Below are positions 255-61,239 of a DNA stretch of 64,000 nt, in pieces. The stretch lies in the sequence record PV295200.1; one strand, written 5' to 3'. The position numbers were made by a program, and so were the translations under genes. The stretch's first letter is position 1. Each line of letters opens with the position of its first letter. The notes beneath the pieces are model-generated. The model made no database searches, had not been told where the DNA came from, and saw nothing but the letters and a program-made list of their open reading frames with translations. The stretch comes from Escherichia phage vB_Eco_BCPEco_001.

Positions 255-2765
<2,511 letters not shown>

Positions 2766-2796
2766 TTAAAATCCTTTGGGGCCTTGCGGCCCCATG

Positions 2797-4254
2797 TTAT
2801 GCTGGTGATAAAAAGGTAGAAAGTAGTACCCATTCGCCGTCTTTACGAACGTAAGCTTGCCCATCTCTTGGAGCTTCAGGAATATAACCTGCTTCTTGTA
2901 GATCTTGAACGCTGCTCTGTAAAGAGGATATATCGTCTTTAACTGTATTTACTTCCTGCGTGACTGCCGCAATGTTAGTTTCATTCGTTTTTACAGAATT
3001 AGTTAATCCTCGTTCTTCAACAGTTGATCCGTCAGGATTATTTCCATTTATAAGTGAAGTAAGTTCAATAACTTGACCTTTAATTCCTGTTCTATTATTT
3101 CCTATTTCAACTTGTATATTTTGAACATTATTGTTTAAAACTGAAACTTCTCCTTCAAGCACTGAAACTTTATTTAATAGAGATCCAGAAGGAGACGGTT
3201 GTCCTCCGCTGGAGTCAGTTCCAACAATTTGATTTAACCACGAAACATTCGCTCTTAAACCAGACGAAGTGTTTTCACCAACAATTCCGTTTAAAGACTC
3301 AATAGAAGTTGTGTGATTTTTAATTTTTCCTTTAATACTAGAAGGAATATCATCTGAACCTATAGAAGTTTCAATAGCCGTTAAGCGCTGTTTAACACCT
3401 TCACTCTGATTTAATTCATTATTAATAGATTCAATGCTACTTTTGTTATTATTAATTTCTGTTATTATAGAAACATTTTCTGGGTATCCAATAGAAGATT
3501 TAATTTCTGCTATATCAGAATTTATTAAAGTTTGTTTATCATCTATAGTGTTTAATCTATTATAAATATTTGGTCCAAAATCTACTGGTTTATTACCAAG
3601 TTCATCGCGTAATTTACCAACTTCAACCGTCAATGATCCTACGTCAGATTCAGTAAATTTATTTTCTAATTCACTTAAACGAATGCCTTGTGAAGATAAT
3701 AATGTACTATTTGTTATTATTCTATGTTTCATTCCTGTGCTAGCATTACCAACAACAGGAAGACCGTTAATGTCTTGGCCAGAATATTGCCCTAGTTCTT
3801 GTTTAATCCACAATAAATCATTTCTAATTGTTCTATAAACAGAGTTTTCTTCATCATTAAATGGACCTATATCAGCAATAATTTTGTCAACTGTATTATT
3901 AGTTCCAGTTAATATATCAGTGTGTTCATTAGTAAGTGTCTTTAAATTTGATATGTCATTTTTATTAACACTGATCTGCGATAGTGCTTCTATATCTCCT
4001 GATACATCTAAAACTCCTTGAATTGTTTTAATATCTTTCTGCGATGTTTCAATGGCAGTTTTAAGAATTCCTATATTTTCGTCAAGAACCTCAACATTTT
4101 TAAACACGGAAACAATTGGTCTATTCATTGATCCATCGTTTCCATACTTAGTGCTAGCTCCTAGTATTTCTTCACCATTTTTAATCCATGAAATACGTTC
4201 CTGACCTTCATCAGGAACGCTATCAACAAAAGGTAACTCTTTTAATTCAATCAT
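2797..4254 (-). CDS. wac: fibritin (whisker antigen control protein)
   Basis: 485 aa, long Ser/Asn/Leu-rich coiled-coil repeats, C-terminal foldon [27 protein letters not shown]. Confidence 0.9.
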
Positions 4255-36177: not shown

Positions 36178-36471
36178 ATGGCCTTAAAAGCAACGGCACT
36201 ATTTGCCATGCTAGGATTAGCGTTTGCTTTATCTCCATCGATTGAAGCGAATGTCGATCCTCATTTTGATAAATTTATGGAATCTGGTATTAGACACGTT
36301 TATATGCTTTTTGAAAATAAAAGCGTAGAATCATCTGAACAGTTCTATAGTTTTATGCGAACGACTTATAAAAATGACCCGTGCTCTTCCGATTTTGAAT
36401 GTATAGAGCGAGGCGCGGAGATGGCACAATCATACGCTAGAATTATGAACATTAAATTGGAGACTGAATGA
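36178..36471 (+). CDS. rI: lysis inhibition regulator RI (periplasmic antiholin)
   Basis: 97 aa; MALKATALFAMLGLAFALSPSIEANVDPHFDKFMESGIRHVYMLFENKS... matches T4 RI as recalled, including signal-anchor and conserved Cys. Confidence 0.85.
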   Translation: MALKATALFAMLGLAFALSPSIEANVDPHFDKFMESGIRHVYMLFENKSVESSEQFYSFMRTTYKNDPCSSDFECIERGAEMAQSYARIMNIKLETE

Positions 36472-36858: not shown

Positions 36859-36882
36859 AGTCTCCTTCGGGAGACTTTTTTC
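36859..36882 (+). terminator. rho-independent terminator
   Basis: AGTCTCC-ttcg-GGAGACT followed by TTTTTTCATTTT. Confidence 0.75.
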
Positions 36883-36891
36883 ATTTTACCG

Positions 36892-36921
36892 GTTTACTTT
36901 CCATTTGAGCTGTGATACTAT
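36892..36921 (+). promoter_or_regulatory. early promoter
   Basis: GTTTAC, 18 nt, TG-a-TACTAT. Confidence 0.55.
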
Positions 36922-36949
36922 ACAAATATCGGATAAAGAGGAGAACATC

Positions 36950-37138
36950 ATGAAAATTGAAGCACTTAATCAAGAAGGAAATATCTACGTCATCATTAAT
37001 GGTGATTTTTTCGTCGACATGGATGAAGTTACTAGTGAAGAACTTGTAGAACTTCTTAAGAAACGTTATGATATGTGTGATGAAGCTGCAACTCATATGG
37101 CGTGTGCAATATTCTCTCTTTCATATGTGGTGGAATAA
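36950..37138 (+). CDS. small acidic protein
   Basis: 62 aa from ATG at 36950 with GAGGAGAA RBS. Confidence 0.45.
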
Positions 37139-37341
37139 TGACTAGAATTGAACAAGCAGATAAAATTAAAGAATTGGTAGCTTTAATTCGCAAAGCAGAT
37201 GAGGAACTTAGTGACTTTGCTTGGTTTTCGGCAGGCATTGCAAATAAAGGTATTGAAAAATTTGAAGCTAAAGTTGATAATGCTGTAGAAGCTTTAGATA
37301 TGTTTCTTGATGAAATTATCGATCATAATACGAGAGTTTAA
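37138..37341 (+). CDS. small helical protein, paralog family (about 60 aa)
   Basis: 67 aa from ATG at 37138; IKELVALIRKADEELSD... Confidence 0.45.
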   Translation: MTRIEQADKIKELVALIRKADEELSDFAWFSAGIANKGIEKFEAKVDNAVEALDMFLDEIIDHNTRV

Positions 37342-37343
37342 GT

Positions 37344-37538
37344 ATGCTAACACGTAAACAGTTTGAAAAAATCATTAAATTAGCACGTGATATTGAAATA
37401 GATTCATACCAATTGGCAGTTGAGCATTGTGAAGGATACTCATACGATGGTATAGAAGCAGCTAAAAAGGATTTGGATAAATCCAAAGCTAAGTTAGTTC
37501 AATATCTTGAAATGATTAGGTGGAATAATGAAAACTGA
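37344..37538 (+). CDS. small helical protein, paralog family
   Basis: 64 aa; KQFEKIIKLARDIEID... Confidence 0.45.
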   Translation: MLTRKQFEKIIKLARDIEIDSYQLAVEHCEGYSYDGIEAAKKDLDKSKAKLVQYLEMIRWNNEN

Positions 37539-37700
37539 AAAGCAGATGTTTTTAATGAAGCTAATTGAAGAATATGCTAATGCAGTTTCTGACTATGAAT
37601 GTTCTTCTCGTGAAAGAGGTACAGCTTTCGCTAAAGAAGAATTGAAAATCATGGTTGATGCTCATACAAAGCTTCAGAATTTTATTGAAAACGTCATTTA
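37527..37700 (+). CDS. small helical protein, paralog family
   Basis: 57 aa ORF not in track (under 60 aa), read from ATG at 37527: MKTEKQMFLMKLIEEYANAVSDYE... Confidence 0.35.
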
Positions 37701-37703
37701 ATG

Positions 37704-37733
37704 GTTTACAAGTTGGCAAGGTTATGGTATAGT
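37704..37733 (+). promoter_or_regulatory. early promoter
   Basis: GTTTAC, 18 nt, TG-g-TATAGT. Confidence 0.5.
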
Positions 37734-37865
37734 AATCTTGTCAACTGTCAAGGAGAAGAGAATGAAAATTTTGTTTGTTGTGTATGTGATGATTCAATAT
37801 AATTACCCAATGTTTACTTATAATCTGGTGAACAACATTATTGATATTATTCAAAGGAGTATGTA

Positions 37866-38051
37866 ATGACAAGTGAGCAGGCTTTTAAATTAAGAGAATT
37901 AATTGAGACGTATAGTAAAGCTGTTCATACATCAACAATTATTGATGAATCAGCTTTCTCCGGACATGCCAACAAGATTAAATACAAAACTCTTATGGAA
38001 GAAGCTAAAGTAAATCTTGATTCTTATATTGAAACTTTAATTGGTGAATAA
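37866..38051 (+). CDS. small helical protein, paralog family
   Basis: 61 aa; MTSEQAFKLRELIETYSKAVHTS... Confidence 0.45.
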   Translation: MTSEQAFKLRELIETYSKAVHTSTIIDESAFSGHANKIKYKTLMEEAKVNLDSYIETLIGE

Positions 38052-38052
38052 C

Positions 38053-38319
38053 ATGGGCTTTCCTAAATTAGAAGTAGGTGATTTGGTCTTAACAAAATTA
38101 TGGAATGATGTTCAATCAGTAGAAATCTGTCAATATCGTGGAGCAACAGGTAATTTGATGTACACGATTTATAATCCAGAAATTTTATTAGAGTGTCATT
38201 TGGAACGCTTTATAAAAGACACCGATAGTATGCCGTATAGTGTATCGATTGTACGTAAATCTGATACAAAGGAATACTCTAAAATTTTAGAACAAATCAG
38301 CGCAAATAAAAAGGATTAA
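38053..38319 (+). CDS. hypothetical protein
   Basis: 88 aa from ATG at 38053 (track start 38041). Confidence 0.4.
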   Translation: MGFPKLEVGDLVLTKLWNDVQSVEICQYRGATGNLMYTIYNPEILLECHLERFIKDTDSMPYSVSIVRKSDTKEYSKILEQISANKKD

Positions 38320-38320
38320 T

Positions 38321-38854
38321 ATGAAACGATTAGTATTAGAAGTTAGTCCACTTTTTGGTGAATTGGCTATAGAAAAAGTAAATAATATGTATCGTTTGAC
38401 GCAAGAAGACGATATGCTGTATTTTACACCTAGTGAAATTATTCATTTAACCCAAATTGAATATCCTTATACTGATAAAATAGTAAGCATCAATGATGAG
38501 CACAAAATTCATTTTTATTCTTCATGCCCAGGATTTAATATTAAAAGTGAGTCAATGTGTTTATCAGTTATCCATTGGGATAGTTTTATAGATAAGATTA
38601 AATATTTTTATTATTCTAATGAAAGAAAACATAGTTTAAAATGGCTCAAAAATTGCAATGCTATTATTACTAACGCTTGCAATCAGAATGATGAAACTGT
38701 TTTAAACGTATCAAAATGCTATGAAGATGGTGATGTCTTAACTATTCGTCAAATTGATGATTTTCGATCGCATATTGTCACATTTACCAAAGACGAAGCT
38801 ATTGCGCTAAAGACTTATCTCGATTCTGTCATTCCAACTATGATTTCAAAGTGA
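38321..38854 (+). CDS. hypothetical protein, paralog of the following gene
   Basis: 177 aa; C-terminus ...FTKDEAIALKTYLDSVIPTMISK. Confidence 0.45.
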   Translation: MKRLVLEVSPLFGELAIEKVNNMYRLTQEDDMLYFTPSEIIHLTQIEYPYTDKIVSINDEHKIHFYSSCPGFNIKSESMCLSVIHWDSFIDKIKYFYYSNERKHSLKWLKNCNAIITNACNQNDETVLNVSKCYEDGDVLTIRQIDDFRSHIVTFTKDEAIALKTYLDSVIPTMISK

Positions 38855-38860
38855 GGAAAT

Positions 38861-39382
38861 ATGTTTATTTCAAGTGGAAGTGGTTTAATTCGTGTTGAAT
38901 TTAAAAATGACATCTTCCTTATTCAAGGAGATGATATTATTAAAATGAGTTATGATGAAATTAAGAAAATTTGTAATGCTCTTGAAAGTCATGGAAAAGT
39001 GAACGCTGTTATTGATATTGGTGATTTATGGGTGACACTTTATGAAGTATCCGAAGGATTTAATATTGAAGATGAAAACAACATCTTAGCTATTGATAAA
39101 AGAAGCGATTTGTTTGATGTGTTAAAAGTTTATGAACAGTCAAACGGTGGAAGAAAAGCTGTATTGATTTATCAAAAACCACATTCATGTGGAACTGCTT
39201 CAATCATTTCAGATATTGAAGATGAAACTGATACTTATATGTGTGTTTTAAAAGCTGGTGGTGACCGTCATCCGGATTTTATTTCTATTCGTCAAAACAA
39301 TGGAGAAATTTCATTGTCAAAATCAGAAGCTGAAGCTATGATTAAGTATTTAACAACCGTTACGCCTTCAATGAAAGGATAA
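38861..39382 (+). CDS. hypothetical protein, paralog of the preceding gene
   Basis: 173 aa; C-terminus ...SLSKSEAEAMIKYLTTVTPSMKG. Confidence 0.45.
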   Translation: MFISSGSGLIRVEFKNDIFLIQGDDIIKMSYDEIKKICNALESHGKVNAVIDIGDLWVTLYEVSEGFNIEDENNILAIDKRSDLFDVLKVYEQSNGGRKAVLIYQKPHSCGTASIISDIEDETDTYMCVLKAGGDRHPDFISIRQNNGEISLSKSEAEAMIKYLTTVTPSMKG

Positions 39383-39384
39383 TT

Positions 39385-39846
39385 ATGATTATTAATGAAA
39401 ACTCTTGGCACTATAAATTATTCAAATTGTTTAACGATGAATGGCAACGACCTAAGACACTATGCGCATATTTTTGGTCTATTGTTATCCCTACATTTTT
39501 CGTTTCTATTTTTGGGTGTGCTATACTCGTAGGGCTAACAATTATTTGTGCAGAAAGCTTACAACGATGGCTTATTTTCGGTAGTTTATGGACTTTGCTT
39601 CCATCAGCATTTATACTTGCCATTTTGCTTGTTTTACTTATTATTGGTTCATTTGTTATTCCTGTACATTTGCGTGAAAAATATAAAGATTATAAATGGA
39701 AAAAGGATTATGCTTTACACGTAGAAAACATTGATAGGAAAAATAAAGGTTTACCTCCTATTCAACCCAAGAAATCGATTATCGTTGAATTTTTAAAAGC
39801 TCGTAAAGCTAAAGTATGTCCTGTTATTGAATATAAGGCTGAATGA
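39385..39846 (+). CDS. membrane protein
   Basis: 153 aa; two to three hydrophobic helices, Lys-rich C-terminal tail. Confidence 0.45.
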   Translation: MIINENSWHYKLFKLFNDEWQRPKTLCAYFWSIVIPTFFVSIFGCAILVGLTIICAESLQRWLIFGSLWTLLPSAFILAILLVLLIIGSFVIPVHLREKYKDYKWKKDYALHVENIDRKNKGLPPIQPKKSIIVEFLKARKAKVCPVIEYKAE

Positions 39847-40856
39847 TGAAAACAGTAATGAAAAGCTATTTTGGTAGCCATCTTTATGGAACTTCTACCC
39901 CAGAATCTGATGTAGATTTTAAAGAAATCTTTGTTCCTCCTGCTCGCGATATTCTTATCGGAAATGTCAAAGAGCATATGAGTAAAAACACTAACAATAC
40001 ATCATCTAAAAACACTAAAGATGATATTGACCATGAACTATACAGTCTTAAATATTTCTTTAAATTAGCAGCAGATGGTGAAACTGTAGCATTAGATATG
40101 CTTCACACTCCACCTGAACTAGTGGTTAAATCTGATTTGCCTGATGTGTGGAAGTTTATTCAAGACAACCGTTCTCGTTTTTATACGACTAACATGAAAT
40201 CATATTTAGGATATGTCCGCAAGCAAGCTTCTAAATACGGTGTCAAGGGTTCTCGTTTGGCCGCATTACGTGATGTATTGAAAGTAGTTAATCAAATCCC
40301 TGAGCAATGGGTTGATTACCAAGAAGACGGTTCCATTAAGCAGCGTCGAACTAAAGTTGAAGATATTAAGCATCGTCTTCCAGAGAACGAATTCTGTGAA
40401 TGGGTATTCCATAATCATGAGAAAACAGGCCCACAAACGTTCTACACTGTGTTGGGTCGTAAATATCAAACAACACTTTCTCTTATTGAGCTTAAGCAAT
40501 CTTTGAATAAACTTGATGCTGAATACGGCGAACGTGCTCGTAAGGCTGAAGCGAATGAGGGCATTGACTGGAAAGCTCTGAGTCATGCTTGCCGTGGTGG
40601 ACTCCAACTATTGGAAATTTACAAAACTGGCGACTTGGTTTACCCACTTCAAGACGCTCCATTTATTCTCGACGTGAAGTTGGGTAAACATCCATTTAAA
40701 ACCGTTCAAGAGTTTTTGGAAGATGTGGTCGATCAAGTAGAAGCAGCATCTACTGAAGCTTCTAAGAACGGTATGCAGCAAAAAGTAGACATGGGTTTCT
40801 GGGATGACTTCCTTGAGAAGGTCTATCTTGAAAACCACCGAAGTTATTATAAATGA
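39843..40856 (+). CDS. Pol-beta superfamily nucleotidyltransferase-like protein
   Basis: 337 aa; N-terminal GSHLYGTSTPESDVDF fits the G[SG]-x9-13-D-x-[DE] nucleotidyltransferase signature; possible third acidic residue in GETVALDMLH. Confidence 0.5.
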   Translation: MMKTVMKSYFGSHLYGTSTPESDVDFKEIFVPPARDILIGNVKEHMSKNTNNTSSKNTKDDIDHELYSLKYFFKLAADGETVALDMLHTPPELVVKSDLPDVWKFIQDNRSRFYTTNMKSYLGYVRKQASKYGVKGSRLAALRDVLKVVNQIPEQWVDYQEDGSIKQRRTKVEDIKHRLPENEFCEWVFHNHEKTGPQTFYTVLGRKYQTTLSLIELKQSLNKLDAEYGERARKAEANEGIDWKALSHACRGGLQLLEIYKTGDLVYPLQDAPFILDVKLGKHPFKTVQEFLEDVVDQVEAASTEASKNGMQQKVDMGFWDDFLEKVYLENHRSYYK

Positions 40857-40858
40857 TA

Positions 40859-40884
40859 GGGAGCCTTCGGGCTCCCTTTTTTTA
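40859..40884 (+). terminator. rho-independent terminator
   Basis: GGGAGCC-ttcg-GGCTCCC followed by TTTTTTTATTT. Confidence 0.75.
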
Positions 40885-40907
40885 TTTCAAAAATTTTTCA
40901 CAAAACG

Positions 40908-40937
40908 GTTTACAAGCATAAAGCTTTATGGTACTAT
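40908..40937 (+). promoter_or_regulatory. early promoter (repeat family B, copy 2)
   Basis: TTTTTCACAAAACG-GTTTAC, 18 nt, TG-g-TACTAT then ACAACTATCAACT shared with copies 1 and 3. Confidence 0.6.
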
Positions 40938-40971
40938 ACAACTATCAACTGATACGGATTTGGAGAATAAA

Positions 40972-41940
40972 ATGAAAACTGTAACTATCAATAAGGGTAT
41001 CTACTTTGGTAAAGAAATCTCTGGAACTTTTGAGCTCTTAGGCGAATGGTTCCCAGATAATGCTCCGGTGGATGCACAAGGAGATGGTAAAGTTTTTGTT
41101 GAAATTGACGGTAAGCGTCGCGGTGTTTGGGTTTACAAATCAGACATTTCATATGATGGTGTAAAAGTTGAAGAAGTTAAAGAATCATATGAAGATATGA
41201 AAACCCGCATTAATAAAAGATTTAATGTTATGGGAATGATGACGAATGGTATTATTAACGGAAACATTCGTTCATTAATTATCTCTGGTGCGGCGGGTAT
41301 TGGTAAAACGTATTCTTTAGATAAAGCTTTAAATAAAGCAAATGATATTGGATACATTGAGTATAAAAGCATTAATGGTAAAATCTCAGGTATCGGTCTT
41401 TATGAGCAGCTCTGGAATAATCGTGAAGAGAATTCTGTCCTTTTGATTGATGATGTGGATGTTTTCTCTGATATGGACATTCTTAATCTTCTGAAAGCTG
41501 CTCTGGACACTGGAGAGACCCGTAAAGTCTGCTGGAGCACTGCATCTTCTTACTTAGAAGAAAAAGGCATTGACCGTGAGTTTGAATTTAAAGGAACAAT
41601 TGTTTTTATCACAAACGTTGATATTGACCGCGAATTAGACCGTGGTACTAAACTTGCTCCACATTTACAAGCATTAGTGTCCCGCTCAGTTTATTTAGAT
41701 TTGGGTGTTCACACTAATGAAGAAATTATGGTCAGGGTTGAAGATGTTATTCTTTCAACCGACATGATGCAAAAGCGCGGTCTTTCTGATGAAGAAACTT
41801 ATAAAGCATTATCATGGATGAAAGTCAATGTTAACCGTTTACGTAATGTTTCACTGCGTACTGCACTTTATCTTGCTGACTTTATTATGACCGACAAAAA
41901 CGGTTGGGAAGAAATCGCTGAAACGGTATTGTTAAAATGA
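40972..41940 (+). CDS. P-loop NTPase (AAA-like ATPase)
   Basis: 322 aa from ATG at 40972; Walker A ISGAAGIGKTYS, Walker B VLLIDDVD. Confidence 0.5.
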   Translation: MKTVTINKGIYFGKEISGTFELLGEWFPDNAPVDAQGDGKVFVEIDGKRRGVWVYKSDISYDGVKVEEVKESYEDMKTRINKRFNVMGMMTNGIINGNIRSLIISGAAGIGKTYSLDKALNKANDIGYIEYKSINGKISGIGLYEQLWNNREENSVLLIDDVDVFSDMDILNLLKAALDTGETRKVCWSTASSYLEEKGIDREFEFKGTIVFITNVDIDRELDRGTKLAPHLQALVSRSVYLDLGVHTNEEIMVRVEDVILSTDMMQKRGLSDEETYKALSWMKVNVNRLRNVSLRTALYLADFIMTDKNGWEEIAETVLLK

Positions 41941-42656
41941 AAAAATATTTTACTATCTATAAAACTGAAATATTAAATTTAAAGACTGGCGTTAAGAAAT
42001 ATTATTATGGTCGACATATAACTAATAATATCAATGATTCGTATGTTGGTAGTGGAAATTATATAGAACGTGTAAAAGTGTCAAATGACCACATATTATC
42101 AAAAACGGTTTTAGAAGTTTTTGATAATTATGATAAAATGGTACAAGCTGAAATATTATATATCATGGCAGGTAAATTGAAATATGGAAAAAACTGTGTT
42201 AACCTGTCATACGGGGGTGAAGGAGGAAAGGTTGCAGATGAAACTAGAATAAAATGCAAAAAGCATTCTATAAATTTATGGAAAAATCCTAATCATATAC
42301 AGCATATGAAGAAAAAGATGAAAGAGGTCACATCCACGCCGGAAGCTAAATTAAACACTTCAATAAAAACTTCGCAACGATATAAGGACCCGGTTTTTGT
42401 TAGAAAAGTTAGTAATATTATTAAAAAGAAACTAAGCAATCCTGCAGTAAAAGAAAAGCATATTAATGGAATTAAAGCTGCAAAGCGTTCTCATTTAACT
42501 ATATGGCAGTATGAAGATGAATTATTCGAGCTTTGGAAAGAAACTAAATGTGGATGGAGAAAATTTACAAAGGAAGCTATAAAACACGGATATCCAAATG
42601 AACCGTATCGTAGTATGGTATCAACTTTTCAGAAAAGACATTTAGAAGAATCCTAA
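41937..42656 (+). CDS. Seg-like GIY-YIG-type homing endonuclease (diverged)
   Basis: 239 aa; N-terminal FTIYKTEILNLKTGVKKYYYGRHITNN...YVGSG aligns with SegB and the 15571 ORF; Lys-rich C-terminal tail. Confidence 0.5.
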   Translation: MKKYFTIYKTEILNLKTGVKKYYYGRHITNNINDSYVGSGNYIERVKVSNDHILSKTVLEVFDNYDKMVQAEILYIMAGKLKYGKNCVNLSYGGEGGKVADETRIKCKKHSINLWKNPNHIQHMKKKMKEVTSTPEAKLNTSIKTSQRYKDPVFVRKVSNIIKKKLSNPAVKEKHINGIKAAKRSHLTIWQYEDELFELWKETKCGWRKFTKEAIKHGYPNEPYRSMVSTFQKRHLEES

Positions 42657-48596: not shown

Positions 48597-48860
48597 ATGT
48601 TTAAAGTATATGGTTATGATAGCAACATCCATAAATGTGTGTATTGCGATAATGCAAAACGTCTTTTGACCGTGAAGAAACAGCCGTTTGAATTTATCAA
48701 TATTATGCCGGAAAAAGGTGTTTTTGATGATGAGAAAATCGCTGAGCTTCTGACTAAACTAGGTCGTGATACTCAAATCGGCTTAACAATGCCTCAGGTA
48801 TTTGCTCCTGATGGAAGTCATATTGGTGGATTTGACCAATTGCGGGAATACTTTAAATGA
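48597..48860 (+). CDS. nrdC: phage thioredoxin/glutaredoxin
   Basis: 87 aa; MFKVYGYDSNIHKCVYCDNAKRLL... with CVYC redox motif, matching T4 NrdC as recalled. Confidence 0.9.
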   Translation: MFKVYGYDSNIHKCVYCDNAKRLLTVKKQPFEFINIMPEKGVFDDEKIAELLTKLGRDTQIGLTMPQVFAPDGSHIGGFDQLREYFK

Positions 48861-52405: not shown

Positions 52406-53038
52406 ATGAATTATGACAGAATCTATTCAAATCTAGTTAATTCTGCTGAACACCCATCTAAGCCCCGTCAAACTAAAGCCGGGTATGAACTTCATCATAT
52501 AATTCCAAGAAGCATGGGTGGTCCAGATGATTTAGACAACTTAGTATTTTTAACTTATAAGGCCCACTATACTGCTCATCATTTATTGGCTAAAATATAT
52601 GGTGGAAAGATGTATGATGCATATTGGATAATGAGTAATAGTAAGCATAGAAAAGTTACTTCTTCACAATACGCGTATGCAAAAGCTAAGAAATTTGAAA
52701 ATCAGCGTGGCGCAAAAAGAAGCGATAAAACTAAGAAGCTAATGAGCATAGCTAGGTCTAAAGTAACTCTTCCTGATGATTTTGGAAAAAGGATATCTGA
52801 TGGGCTAACAGGAAGAACTTTGTCTACTAGTCATAAAGAGCATATCAAAAATAGTTCTAGAAATCGCTTTAACACCAAAACGGTTATTGGCTATTCACCA
52901 GACGGAAATACAATAGAACTAACTGGAGCAACTGAAATAAGAAATGCAGGATTTTTTCATTCTGCTGTTTATAAATGTTGCAAAGGAATTCAATCTATTC
53001 ATAAGGGATATACTTGGAAATATAAAGATGAATTATGA
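52406..53038 (+). CDS. HNH homing endonuclease
   Basis: 210 aa; HNH motif ELHHIIPRSMGGPDDLDNLVFLTYKAHYTAHH; between nrdD and nrdG, overlapping the nrdG start by 11 nt. Confidence 0.7.
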   Translation: MNYDRIYSNLVNSAEHPSKPRQTKAGYELHHIIPRSMGGPDDLDNLVFLTYKAHYTAHHLLAKIYGGKMYDAYWIMSNSKHRKVTSSQYAYAKAKKFENQRGAKRSDKTKKLMSIARSKVTLPDDFGKRISDGLTGRTLSTSHKEHIKNSSRNRFNTKTVIGYSPDGNTIELTGATEIRNAGFFHSAVYKCCKGIQSIHKGYTWKYKDEL

Positions 53039-60388: not shown

Positions 60389-61239
60389 AGAATTTTAAAC
60401 TTGACATTAATGATGAATTTTTAATAAAGGAATTAGTTGAAAAATTAGCGTTGAGTGAAGAAGACGCCAAGTCTTACATTAATTTTATTTCTATGAATTC
60501 AACTGTTAAAACTCCAGGTAAAACGGAAGCACACCACGTGCTTCCTAAATCAATATTTCCTGAATATTTAAAATCTACATGGAATTTAGTTAATTTAAGT
60601 CATTTTAATCATTTTAAAGCACACTTCTTATTAGCAAAAGGTAAAAATGGAAAAATGCTAAATGCTTTAAATAGAATGATGTCAGGGAAAACATATAAAA
60701 ATTTATCTTTAGCCGAAGTTGATTTAATAGCTGCTGAATATAGTTTTATAAAACAAGATGTAAGTGACACAATATCAAAAAGGCTTCAACAGTATTATTC
60801 AAATCCGCAAAATAGAAATGCTGCTAGAGAAAGGGCATTAAAATATTTTTCAGTAGCAAAAAATAGGAAAGATAACAAAGAAAGATTAAATAATTTTAAA
60901 ACAAAACAAAAAATTTCAATGGCTTCAAGGGAATGGTTTAATAACGAAGAAAACAAAATTAAACACCAAAAGGCTGTTCGTGCTGCTTTATCAAAACCTG
61001 AATATAAAATAGCTATATCAAATTCAGTAGCTGCTAGTTGGAAAAATCCGGAGATTAGAAAAGCTCATATAGCATCTAGACGAAAAGGCTATCATTGGGA
61101 TAATAAAGATAAATTGTATGAATTGTGGATATCATATAATCGTCCTAAACATGTGATGTTTAGGAAAATGTTAGTTAAGAATGGATATCCAATAGAGGCT
61201 TCATTACAGGCTTTAGTTAAAGAATTTTCTTCATTGTGA
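60385..61239 (+). CDS. HNH homing endonuclease
   Basis: 284 aa, GTG start with AAGGAA RBS; HNH motif EAHHVLPKSIFPEYLKSTWNLVNLSHFNHFKAH; Lys-rich repeated C-terminal modules; between genes 47 and 46. Confidence 0.7.
   Translation: MKNFKLDINDEFLIKELVEKLALSEEDAKSYINFISMNSTVKTPGKTEAHHVLPKSIFPEYLKSTWNLVNLSHFNHFKAHFLLAKGKNGKMLNALNRMMSGKTYKNLSLAEVDLIAAEYSFIKQDVSDTISKRLQQYYSNPQNRNAARERALKYFSVAKNRKDNKERLNNFKTKQKISMASREWFNNEENKIKHQKAVRAALSKPEYKIAISNSVAASWKNPEIRKAHIASRRKGYHWDNKDKLYELWISYNRPKHVMFRKMLVKNGYPIEASLQALVKEFSSL

Follow-up and report, generated by a model that had tools for sequence, protein, structure and literature searches.

Two adjacent MobD.1/Y05I-family genes of a Tequatrovirus are full-length paralogs with a predicted Pur-alpha-like architecture

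In the plastic region between rI and nrdC of a T4-like phage genome, two adjacent open reading frames of similar length, here designated P1 and P2, end in related sequences, and this raises the question of whether they are true paralogs, how such a pair came to stand side by side, and what its products might do. An earlier note on the window (the whole stretch of 64,000 nucleotides that was analysed) had described the two ORFs as a tandem duplication with a shared C-terminal motif, followed by a membrane protein. Both are present on the plus strand as quoted, and the next ORF does encode a protein with two long hydrophobic stretches. The 2-kb stretch around P1 and P2 was 100% identical to Shigella phage vB_Shso_BCPShso_001 and 90–99.8% identical to approximately 500 other T4-like phage records, mostly of the genus Tequatrovirus, to which the source phage evidently belongs. 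According to the mapping of T4 proteins to the window, the order on the plus strand is tk, rI.1, rI, rI.-1, mobD.5, mobD.4, mobD.3, mobD.2a, mobD.2, mobD.1, nrdC.11, and nrdC.10, followed further downstream by nrdC, which places the locus where it had been said to lie. The coordinates of the features are collected in Table 1. Pfam, PHROGs, and notes in GenBank records already cover both genes, which are common and identical to genes in deposited phage genomes.

Table 1. Features at and around the P1/P2 locus, in positions of the window.
Feature	Position	Strand	Description and evidence
rI	36178-36468	+	T4 protein mapping
Terminator-like hairpin after rI.-1	36859-36876		strong
Early-promoter-like site	36893-36921	+	TTTACT, 17 nt, TACTAT; read from sequence
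Phage_tudor gene	38041-38319	+	92 aa from the listed TTG start; PF24144, E 9.5e-40
P1	38321-38854	+	ORF, 177 aa; T4 MobD.1/Y05I ortholog
T4 mobD.1 match	38324-38851	+	T4 protein mapping
P1 y05I_N domain	38330-38620	+	aa 4-100
P1 y05I_C domain	38633-38842	+	aa 105-174
P2	38861-39382	+	ORF, 173 aa; full-length MobD.1 paralog, missing in T4
P2 y05I_N domain	38864-39145	+	aa 2-95
P2 y05I_C domain	39164-39373	+	aa 102-171
Small membrane protein gene	39385-39846	+	153 aa; phrog_944 'membrane protein', E 3e-51
nrdC.11 ortholog	39843-40856	+	RlaP-type nucleotidyltransferase, final gene of the unit; PF10127, E 2.5e-11; phrog_388
T4 nrdC.11 match	39846-40853	+	T4 protein mapping
Intrinsic terminator-like hairpin after nrdC.11	40858-40877	+	8-bp stem, 6 G-C pairs, T-run; closes the unit
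nrdC	48597-48857	+	T4 protein mapping

The genes are AT-rich, with a GC content of 29–31%, and the C-terminal tail is the most conspicuous stretch of the match between them, as would be expected if the likeness were a product of chance or composition limited to a short tail. A full-length alignment gave a different picture. BLASTP aligned residues 8–174 of P1 with residues 3–171 of P2 over 176 columns, with 27% identity, 49% positives, and an E value of 9e-10. In a test based on 2000 shuffles and the BLOSUM62 local alignment score, the full-length pair scored 102, compared with 30.7 ± 5.1 for the null (z 13.9), and with the last 27 residues cut off the score was still 75, compared with 29.0 ± 4.7 (z 9.8), a value reached by none of the 2000 shuffles; the N-terminal halves alone gave a z of 9.4 and the C-terminal halves a z of 6.3. 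Likewise, both proteins matched the Pfam families T4_y05I_N (PF24449; E 2e-39 for P1 and 1e-34 for P2) and T4_y05I_C (PF24448; E 2e-21 and 2e-23), with bit scores that pass the gathering scores in every case (134.4 and 119.6 against 24.9 for the N-domain, 76.8 and 82.7 against 27 for the C-domain), and both matched a single PHROG, phrog_1502. Because BLASTP, the shuffle tests, and the Pfam and PHROG matches agree, the similarity is taken as real and full-length, extending beyond any low-complexity tail; a tail-only or compositional origin is hardly credible in view of the score without the tail and of the N-domain matches to PF24449. By these comparisons, the homology of P1 and P2 spans their whole length, which goes beyond what the earlier note had claimed for the adjacent paralogs. 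When the two proteins were searched with tblastn against the window and the T4 region, no further paralogs were found and the P1–P2 pair itself was missed, so the relationship is visible to BLASTP and HMM methods only.

Regarding the age of the pair, a recent tandem duplication leaving two redundant copies would account for genes that are adjacent, in the same orientation, and similar in length, in a region that also holds other tandem paralogs (four DUF7438 genes). However, the proteins share only 27% identity and the genes no DNA word longer than 13 nt, and each copy is separately conserved at 90–100% identity in hundreds of genomes. Both copies also bear the marks of real genes. Shine-Dalgarno-like sequences precede P1 (AAGGA) and P2 (GAGGA), and across six Tequatrovirus genomes neither gene had internal stops. 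In the same genomes, the dN/dS ratio of P1 was mostly 0.1–0.4 (range 0.09–0.60 among same-allele pairs), that of P2 0.12–0.30, and that of the membrane protein gene 0.04–0.21; P1 and P2 are under purifying selection. A recent duplication is therefore very improbable, and of the earlier description as a tandem duplication, the adjacency and the paralogy stand, while the notion of a recent local event does not. Judging from this divergence, the pair is old, having arisen either by an ancient duplication or by the stacking of two divergent alleles through recombination between phages; that these are the two options follows from the existence of phages with a lone P1, a lone P2, or a lone C-domain.

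P1 is 86% identical to T4 MobD.1 (UniProt Y05I_BPT4) and, given this identity and the order of the T4 proteins on the map, is considered its ortholog. In T4, mobD.1 is present in a single copy, and the mobD HNH homing endonuclease gene stands exactly in the place that P2 and the membrane protein gene occupy in this phage, neither of which has a counterpart in T4; the DNA identity between the window and T4 accordingly falls at ~38860 and returns at ~39860. The GenBank record of phage T6 labels P2 as 'similar to mobD.1' and states that the membrane protein gene 'replaces mobD'. The same arrangement, in which the mobD.2/Tudor genes are followed by the slot of the y05I-family genes and then by nrdC.11, was found in the window, T6, slur13, UP19, Kc304, and metagenomic contigs. 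The Tudor gene is the conserved neighbour upstream of the slot, present also in Kc304, in contigs carrying a hybrid gene, and in metagenomic contig L012; it was absent in EC121. At the other end, the nrdC.11 protein of the window is 98.5% identical to T4 NrdC.11.

The content of the slot varies considerably among T4-like phages. P1 and P2 occur together in this window, T6, slur13, PaulHMueller, and others; a P1-type gene stands alone in Dhakavirus UP19, and a P2-type gene in contig L012; Kosakonia phage Kc304 (Winklervirus) carries only a 74-aa C-terminal domain; T4 has P1 with the mobD endonuclease; and the slot is decayed in T2, where both genes are split, and in phage TadeuszReichstein, which keeps the C-terminus of P2 only. 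In the phage collection, tblastn recovered P2 at ≥90% identity from 433 records and P1-type genes from 728. Stand-alone y05I_C proteins of 67–87 aa were present in Kc304, Serratia phage X20, Yersinia phage fHe-Yen9-01, and Erwinia phage Cronus, and the y05I C-domain thus appears, from its gene context, to be an autonomous unit whose stand-alone versions fill the same slot in other T4-like phages. Additionally, on six metagenomic contigs (including L009–L011), the Tudor and membrane protein genes flank just one gene, an in-register hybrid that follows P1 up to residue ~125 and then the C-terminus of P2. In the comparison of L009 (gene at 2501–3040) with the window, the crossover falls in the 10-nt word GATGAAACTG, which occupies equivalent codons of the two genes (38690–38699 on the plus strand in P1 and 39221–39230 in P2). 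The locus therefore offers a clean, small case of accessory-gene turnover in phages, in which one slot can be filled by either gene type or by both types, by a hybrid of the two, by the C-domain alone, or by a homing endonuclease.

This variety bears on the origin of the pair. P1-type and P2-type genes could be two long-diverged alleles of the slot that were stacked by recombination between phages, with no local duplication at all, and a slot that can hold either type alone, the C-domain alone, both types, or a hybrid fits this explanation. The P1 slot is dimorphic even within Tequatrovirus: in EC121, RB27, and SHBML-50-1 it is filled by an allele approximately 48% identical to the P1 of the window, with flanking DNA and P2 93–99% identical to it. 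Between EC121 and the window, dN was 0.47 for P1 and 0.03 for P2, and the allele breakpoint, near 38720, falls within the conserved C-domain. In a tree of the C-domain, P1 grouped with the single-copy genes of other phages (45–51% identical to P1), and P2 fell outside the P1 clade, branching among stand-alone C-domain proteins; however, this tree is based on ~70 residues and is of low resolution, and an ancient in situ duplication followed by differential loss would give an identical pattern. Stacking of alleles is thus a serious candidate to which we give somewhat less than even odds, and since it concerns origin, it is compatible with the functional explanation preferred below.

The small membrane protein is a nearly constant companion of the family. 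Its hydrophobic stretches comprise residues 25–60 and 62–98, and its C-terminal tail is basic (net charge +9, pI 9.5). In Kc304, its homolog (34% identity, E 2e-23) is encoded immediately after the gene for the stand-alone C-domain, and in Tequatrovirus, Dhakavirus, and Winklervirus the membrane homolog lies 0–10 nt downstream of the y05I gene or C-domain. The membrane protein gene also adjoins a y05I-family gene in UP19, contig L012, and the hybrid contigs, so that the two are nearly always adjacent. T4, on the other hand, has P1 but neither P2 nor the membrane protein, which argues that neither is an obligatory partner of P1.

P1, P2, the membrane protein gene, and nrdC.11 all lie between the two terminator-like hairpins of Table 1. 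The early-promoter-like site immediately follows the rI.-1 hairpin and precedes the mobD.5 homolog, and the T4 mobD.5 promoter is active 3 min after infection (PMC1702504). This site, which may correspond to the T4 mobD.5 promoter, is the probable start of the unit that contains P1 and P2, and the four genes would form one early co-transcribed operon read from it. No MotA-box pattern, and hence no middle promoter, was found within 36877–40877.

The P1/P2 region is dispensable. In a CRISPR-based reduction of the T4 genome, the nrdC.11–mobD.3 fragment, the T4 counterpart of this region, was among those lost from viable phage (PMC9825161), and the natural decay in T2, where both genes are fragmented, and in TadeuszReichstein agrees with this. 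Both MobD.1-family genes of T2 were split into several short CDS or BLAST pieces in each of two independent records (AP018813, 2052–3019, and PV958097), which suggests real frameshifts, i.e., pseudogenes, over sequencing error.

To what kind of protein these genes give rise was approached through structure prediction. AlphaFold2 models of P1 and P2, built from a 29-sequence alignment, had a mean pLDDT of 80 and 83, respectively, with values of ~90 in the N-domain and 60–85 in the C-domain. Both models show the same order of elements, consisting of three beta-beta-beta-beta-alpha units, which in P1 comprise residues 3–45, 53–99, and 105–175, the third with an extra strand. The best structural matches were Pur-alpha, PBF-2/Whirly, MRP1/2, PC4/Sub1, and the phage T5 PC4 homolog, a set that corresponds exactly to the PC4-like superfamily described in PMC7549692; the fold matches in the PDB also include an SsgA-like cell-division protein and the N-domain of KhtT, which are not described as nucleic-acid binders. 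In the PC4-like superfamily, a domain is built from two repeats, which belong to the same chain in type I and are brought together by dimerisation in type II, and Pur-alpha is named as the sole known protein with both types of domain (PMC7549692). The predicted models of P1 and P2 have this repeat topology of beta-beta-beta-beta-alpha units, two of which would make one domain. At the sequence level, repeats I and III kept a faint resemblance (HHalign E 8.5e-5, with LTQEDD..E-I paired with IRQ-DD..TKDEA), and repeat II showed no sequence similarity to repeat I or III (HHalign E 0.1 and 0.14).

From these models we infer a Pur-alpha-like architecture for P1 and P2. The Pfam N-domain, with repeats I and II, would be a type I PC4-like domain, like repeats I–II of Pur-alpha, and the Pfam C-domain, composed of repeat III and containing the motif first noticed in the sequence, would be a type II half-domain that needs a second copy for completion. 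Read in this manner, the conserved C-terminal motif becomes a putative dimerisation repeat. The half-domain reading fits both the stand-alone C-domain genes and the in-register hybrid. The single-repeat proteins of the superfamily, namely Borrelia Bpur (3n8b), PC4/Sub1, and the phage T5 PC4 homolog (4bg7), have one beta-beta-beta-beta-alpha repeat each and homodimerise to the full domain (PMC7549692), and they are the likely analogues of the stand-alone y05I_C proteins. The three-repeat fold offers a testable model for mobD.1, an uncharacterised early gene of T4.

The likeness is considered architectural only, and P1 and P2 are not assigned to the Pur-alpha family, because no sequence match to PUR, Whirly, or PC4 families or to the PDB was obtained. 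With an E-value limit of 1, a Pfam scan yielded the y05I models and DUF7189 and nothing else, hence no PurA, Whirly, or PC4 family; among PDB sequences, a profile search had no hit below E 0.3 and thus no relative of solved structure; and a fold search of BFVD returned family members only. When compared to individual members of the superfamily, Pur-alpha (PURA; PDB 3k44, 5fgo, 8chw) showed no detectable sequence similarity to the phage proteins, which, in contrast, are acidic. Whirly/PBF-2 p24 and the trypanosome proteins MRP1/MRP2 are basic binders of single-stranded nucleic acids that form higher oligomers, and they have no sequence relationship to P1 or P2. The same absence of a sequence relationship holds for the SsgA-like protein (PDB 3cm1), an actinomycete cell-division factor that lacks the third repeat; the SsgA/SsgB family is acidic and works via protein contacts.

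The fold thus stands in tension with the charge of the family. Every member examined was acidic, with a net charge of −3 to −22 and an N-domain pI of 4.2–5.5, and several of the most conserved residues are themselves acidic. This combination of a nucleic-acid-binder fold with an acidic family points to protein binding or mimicry, and the family-wide acidity makes classic nucleic-acid binding doubtful. Even so, P1 and P2 might be classical binders of single-stranded DNA or RNA of the Pur-alpha/Whirly/PC4 type, with an early regulatory role in transcription, replication, recombination, or the fate of mRNA. The top structural matches all bind single-stranded nucleic acid, the PC4-like fold is a nucleic-acid-binding and unwinding module (PMC7549692) and is best known for single strands, and early expression would suit a regulator. 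The Pfam label 'putative transcription factor' agrees with such a role and was presumably given because single-stranded nucleic acid is the default ligand of the fold. Weighed against the net charge of −3 to −22 across the family, we consider this role less likely than not, though a serious alternative.

The explanation that we prefer, with a probability of roughly 0.5, is that P1 and P2 are anciently diverged members of the MobD.1/Y05I family, early and non-essential, with a Pur-alpha-like architecture, which would act as dimers on a protein ligand or as nucleic-acid mimics. Since the lone repeats of Pur-alpha, PC4, and Borrelia Bpur must pair, P1 and P2 may by analogy form homodimers or P1–P2 heterodimers, in which the conserved C-terminal repeat would connect the two chains. 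The ligand of the beta-sheet faces would then be a macromolecule, for which a host DNA- or RNA-binding protein and the basic cytoplasmic tail of the neighbouring membrane protein are candidates. A protein ligand or nucleic-acid mimicry is favoured over direct binding of nucleic acid because the whole family is acidic. A more specific and clearly improbable version holds that Y05I is the second known, and first viral, family with the layout of Pur-alpha, in which an acidic P1–P2 heterodimer, formed via the C-terminal repeats as proposed for Pur-alpha and Pur-beta, does not itself bind nucleic acid and serves instead as a mimic of it or as an adaptor docked on the basic membrane-protein tail. 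Should an acidic heterodimer of this kind exist, it could be a strain-specific device for host takeover or counter-defence, which would explain the swapping of alleles at this locus.

The family itself is narrow. A word-indexed search recovered 53 family clusters, and an exhaustive HMM search of 1.84 billion representatives returned 30 relatives; all members whose source was checked came from T4-like phages. The exception was a repeat protein of 1572 aa, in which the C-domain profile weakly matched 12 stretches (summed E 8e-12); it resembles a cell-surface protein whose beta-rich repeats contain cysteine, and the summed match was regarded as probably spurious. None of P1, P2, the membrane protein, the Tudor protein, NrdC.11, and NrdC.10 matched a PADLOC model. 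In the literature on y05I, mobD.1, and nrdC.11, we found no functional study, and the mentions were confined to a table of homing endonucleases, the mobD.5 promoter, and the finding that the region can be deleted. Some RefSeq records give the names 'molybdopterin-guanine dinucleotide biosynthesis protein MobD', 'helicase loader', and 'thioredoxin' to small ORFs under window positions 37344–38854 (NC_030953 and many others). No family search supports these names, and they were therefore rejected as artefacts of name collision or propagation arising from the mobD and nrdC prefixes.

Several other features were recorded in the vicinity. Proteins resembling the T4 HNH endonuclease MobD (30–46% identity) are encoded at 1507–1839 (minus strand), 52406–52690, and 60523–61227, and the mobD site itself is unoccupied. 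Downstream of the putative operon, the homolog of nrdC.10, an AAA-type ATPase, appears as a mechanical ORF of 378 aa at 40804–41940. Its real start is probably M57 (40972), where the PHROG and T4 matches begin, and the hairpin after nrdC.11 lies inside the 5′ extension. Between nrdC.10 and nrdC.9, an ORF of 239 aa at 41937–42656 matched PHROG 314, 'homing endonuclease' (E 4e-30); with an E-value limit of 0.01, it matched no Pfam family. The corresponding interval of T4 spans just ~95 nt, and this phage, which lacks mobD at its T4 site, therefore carries a different free-standing endonuclease nearby. Finally, the four tandem DUF7438 paralogs are located at 37138–37338, 37344–37535, 37528–37698, and 37866–38048 (E 1e-14 to 1e-16). 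Three of them have T4 mobD.4, mobD.3, and mobD.2a as counterparts and one is an extra copy missing from T4; together they form a larger array than P1 and P2.
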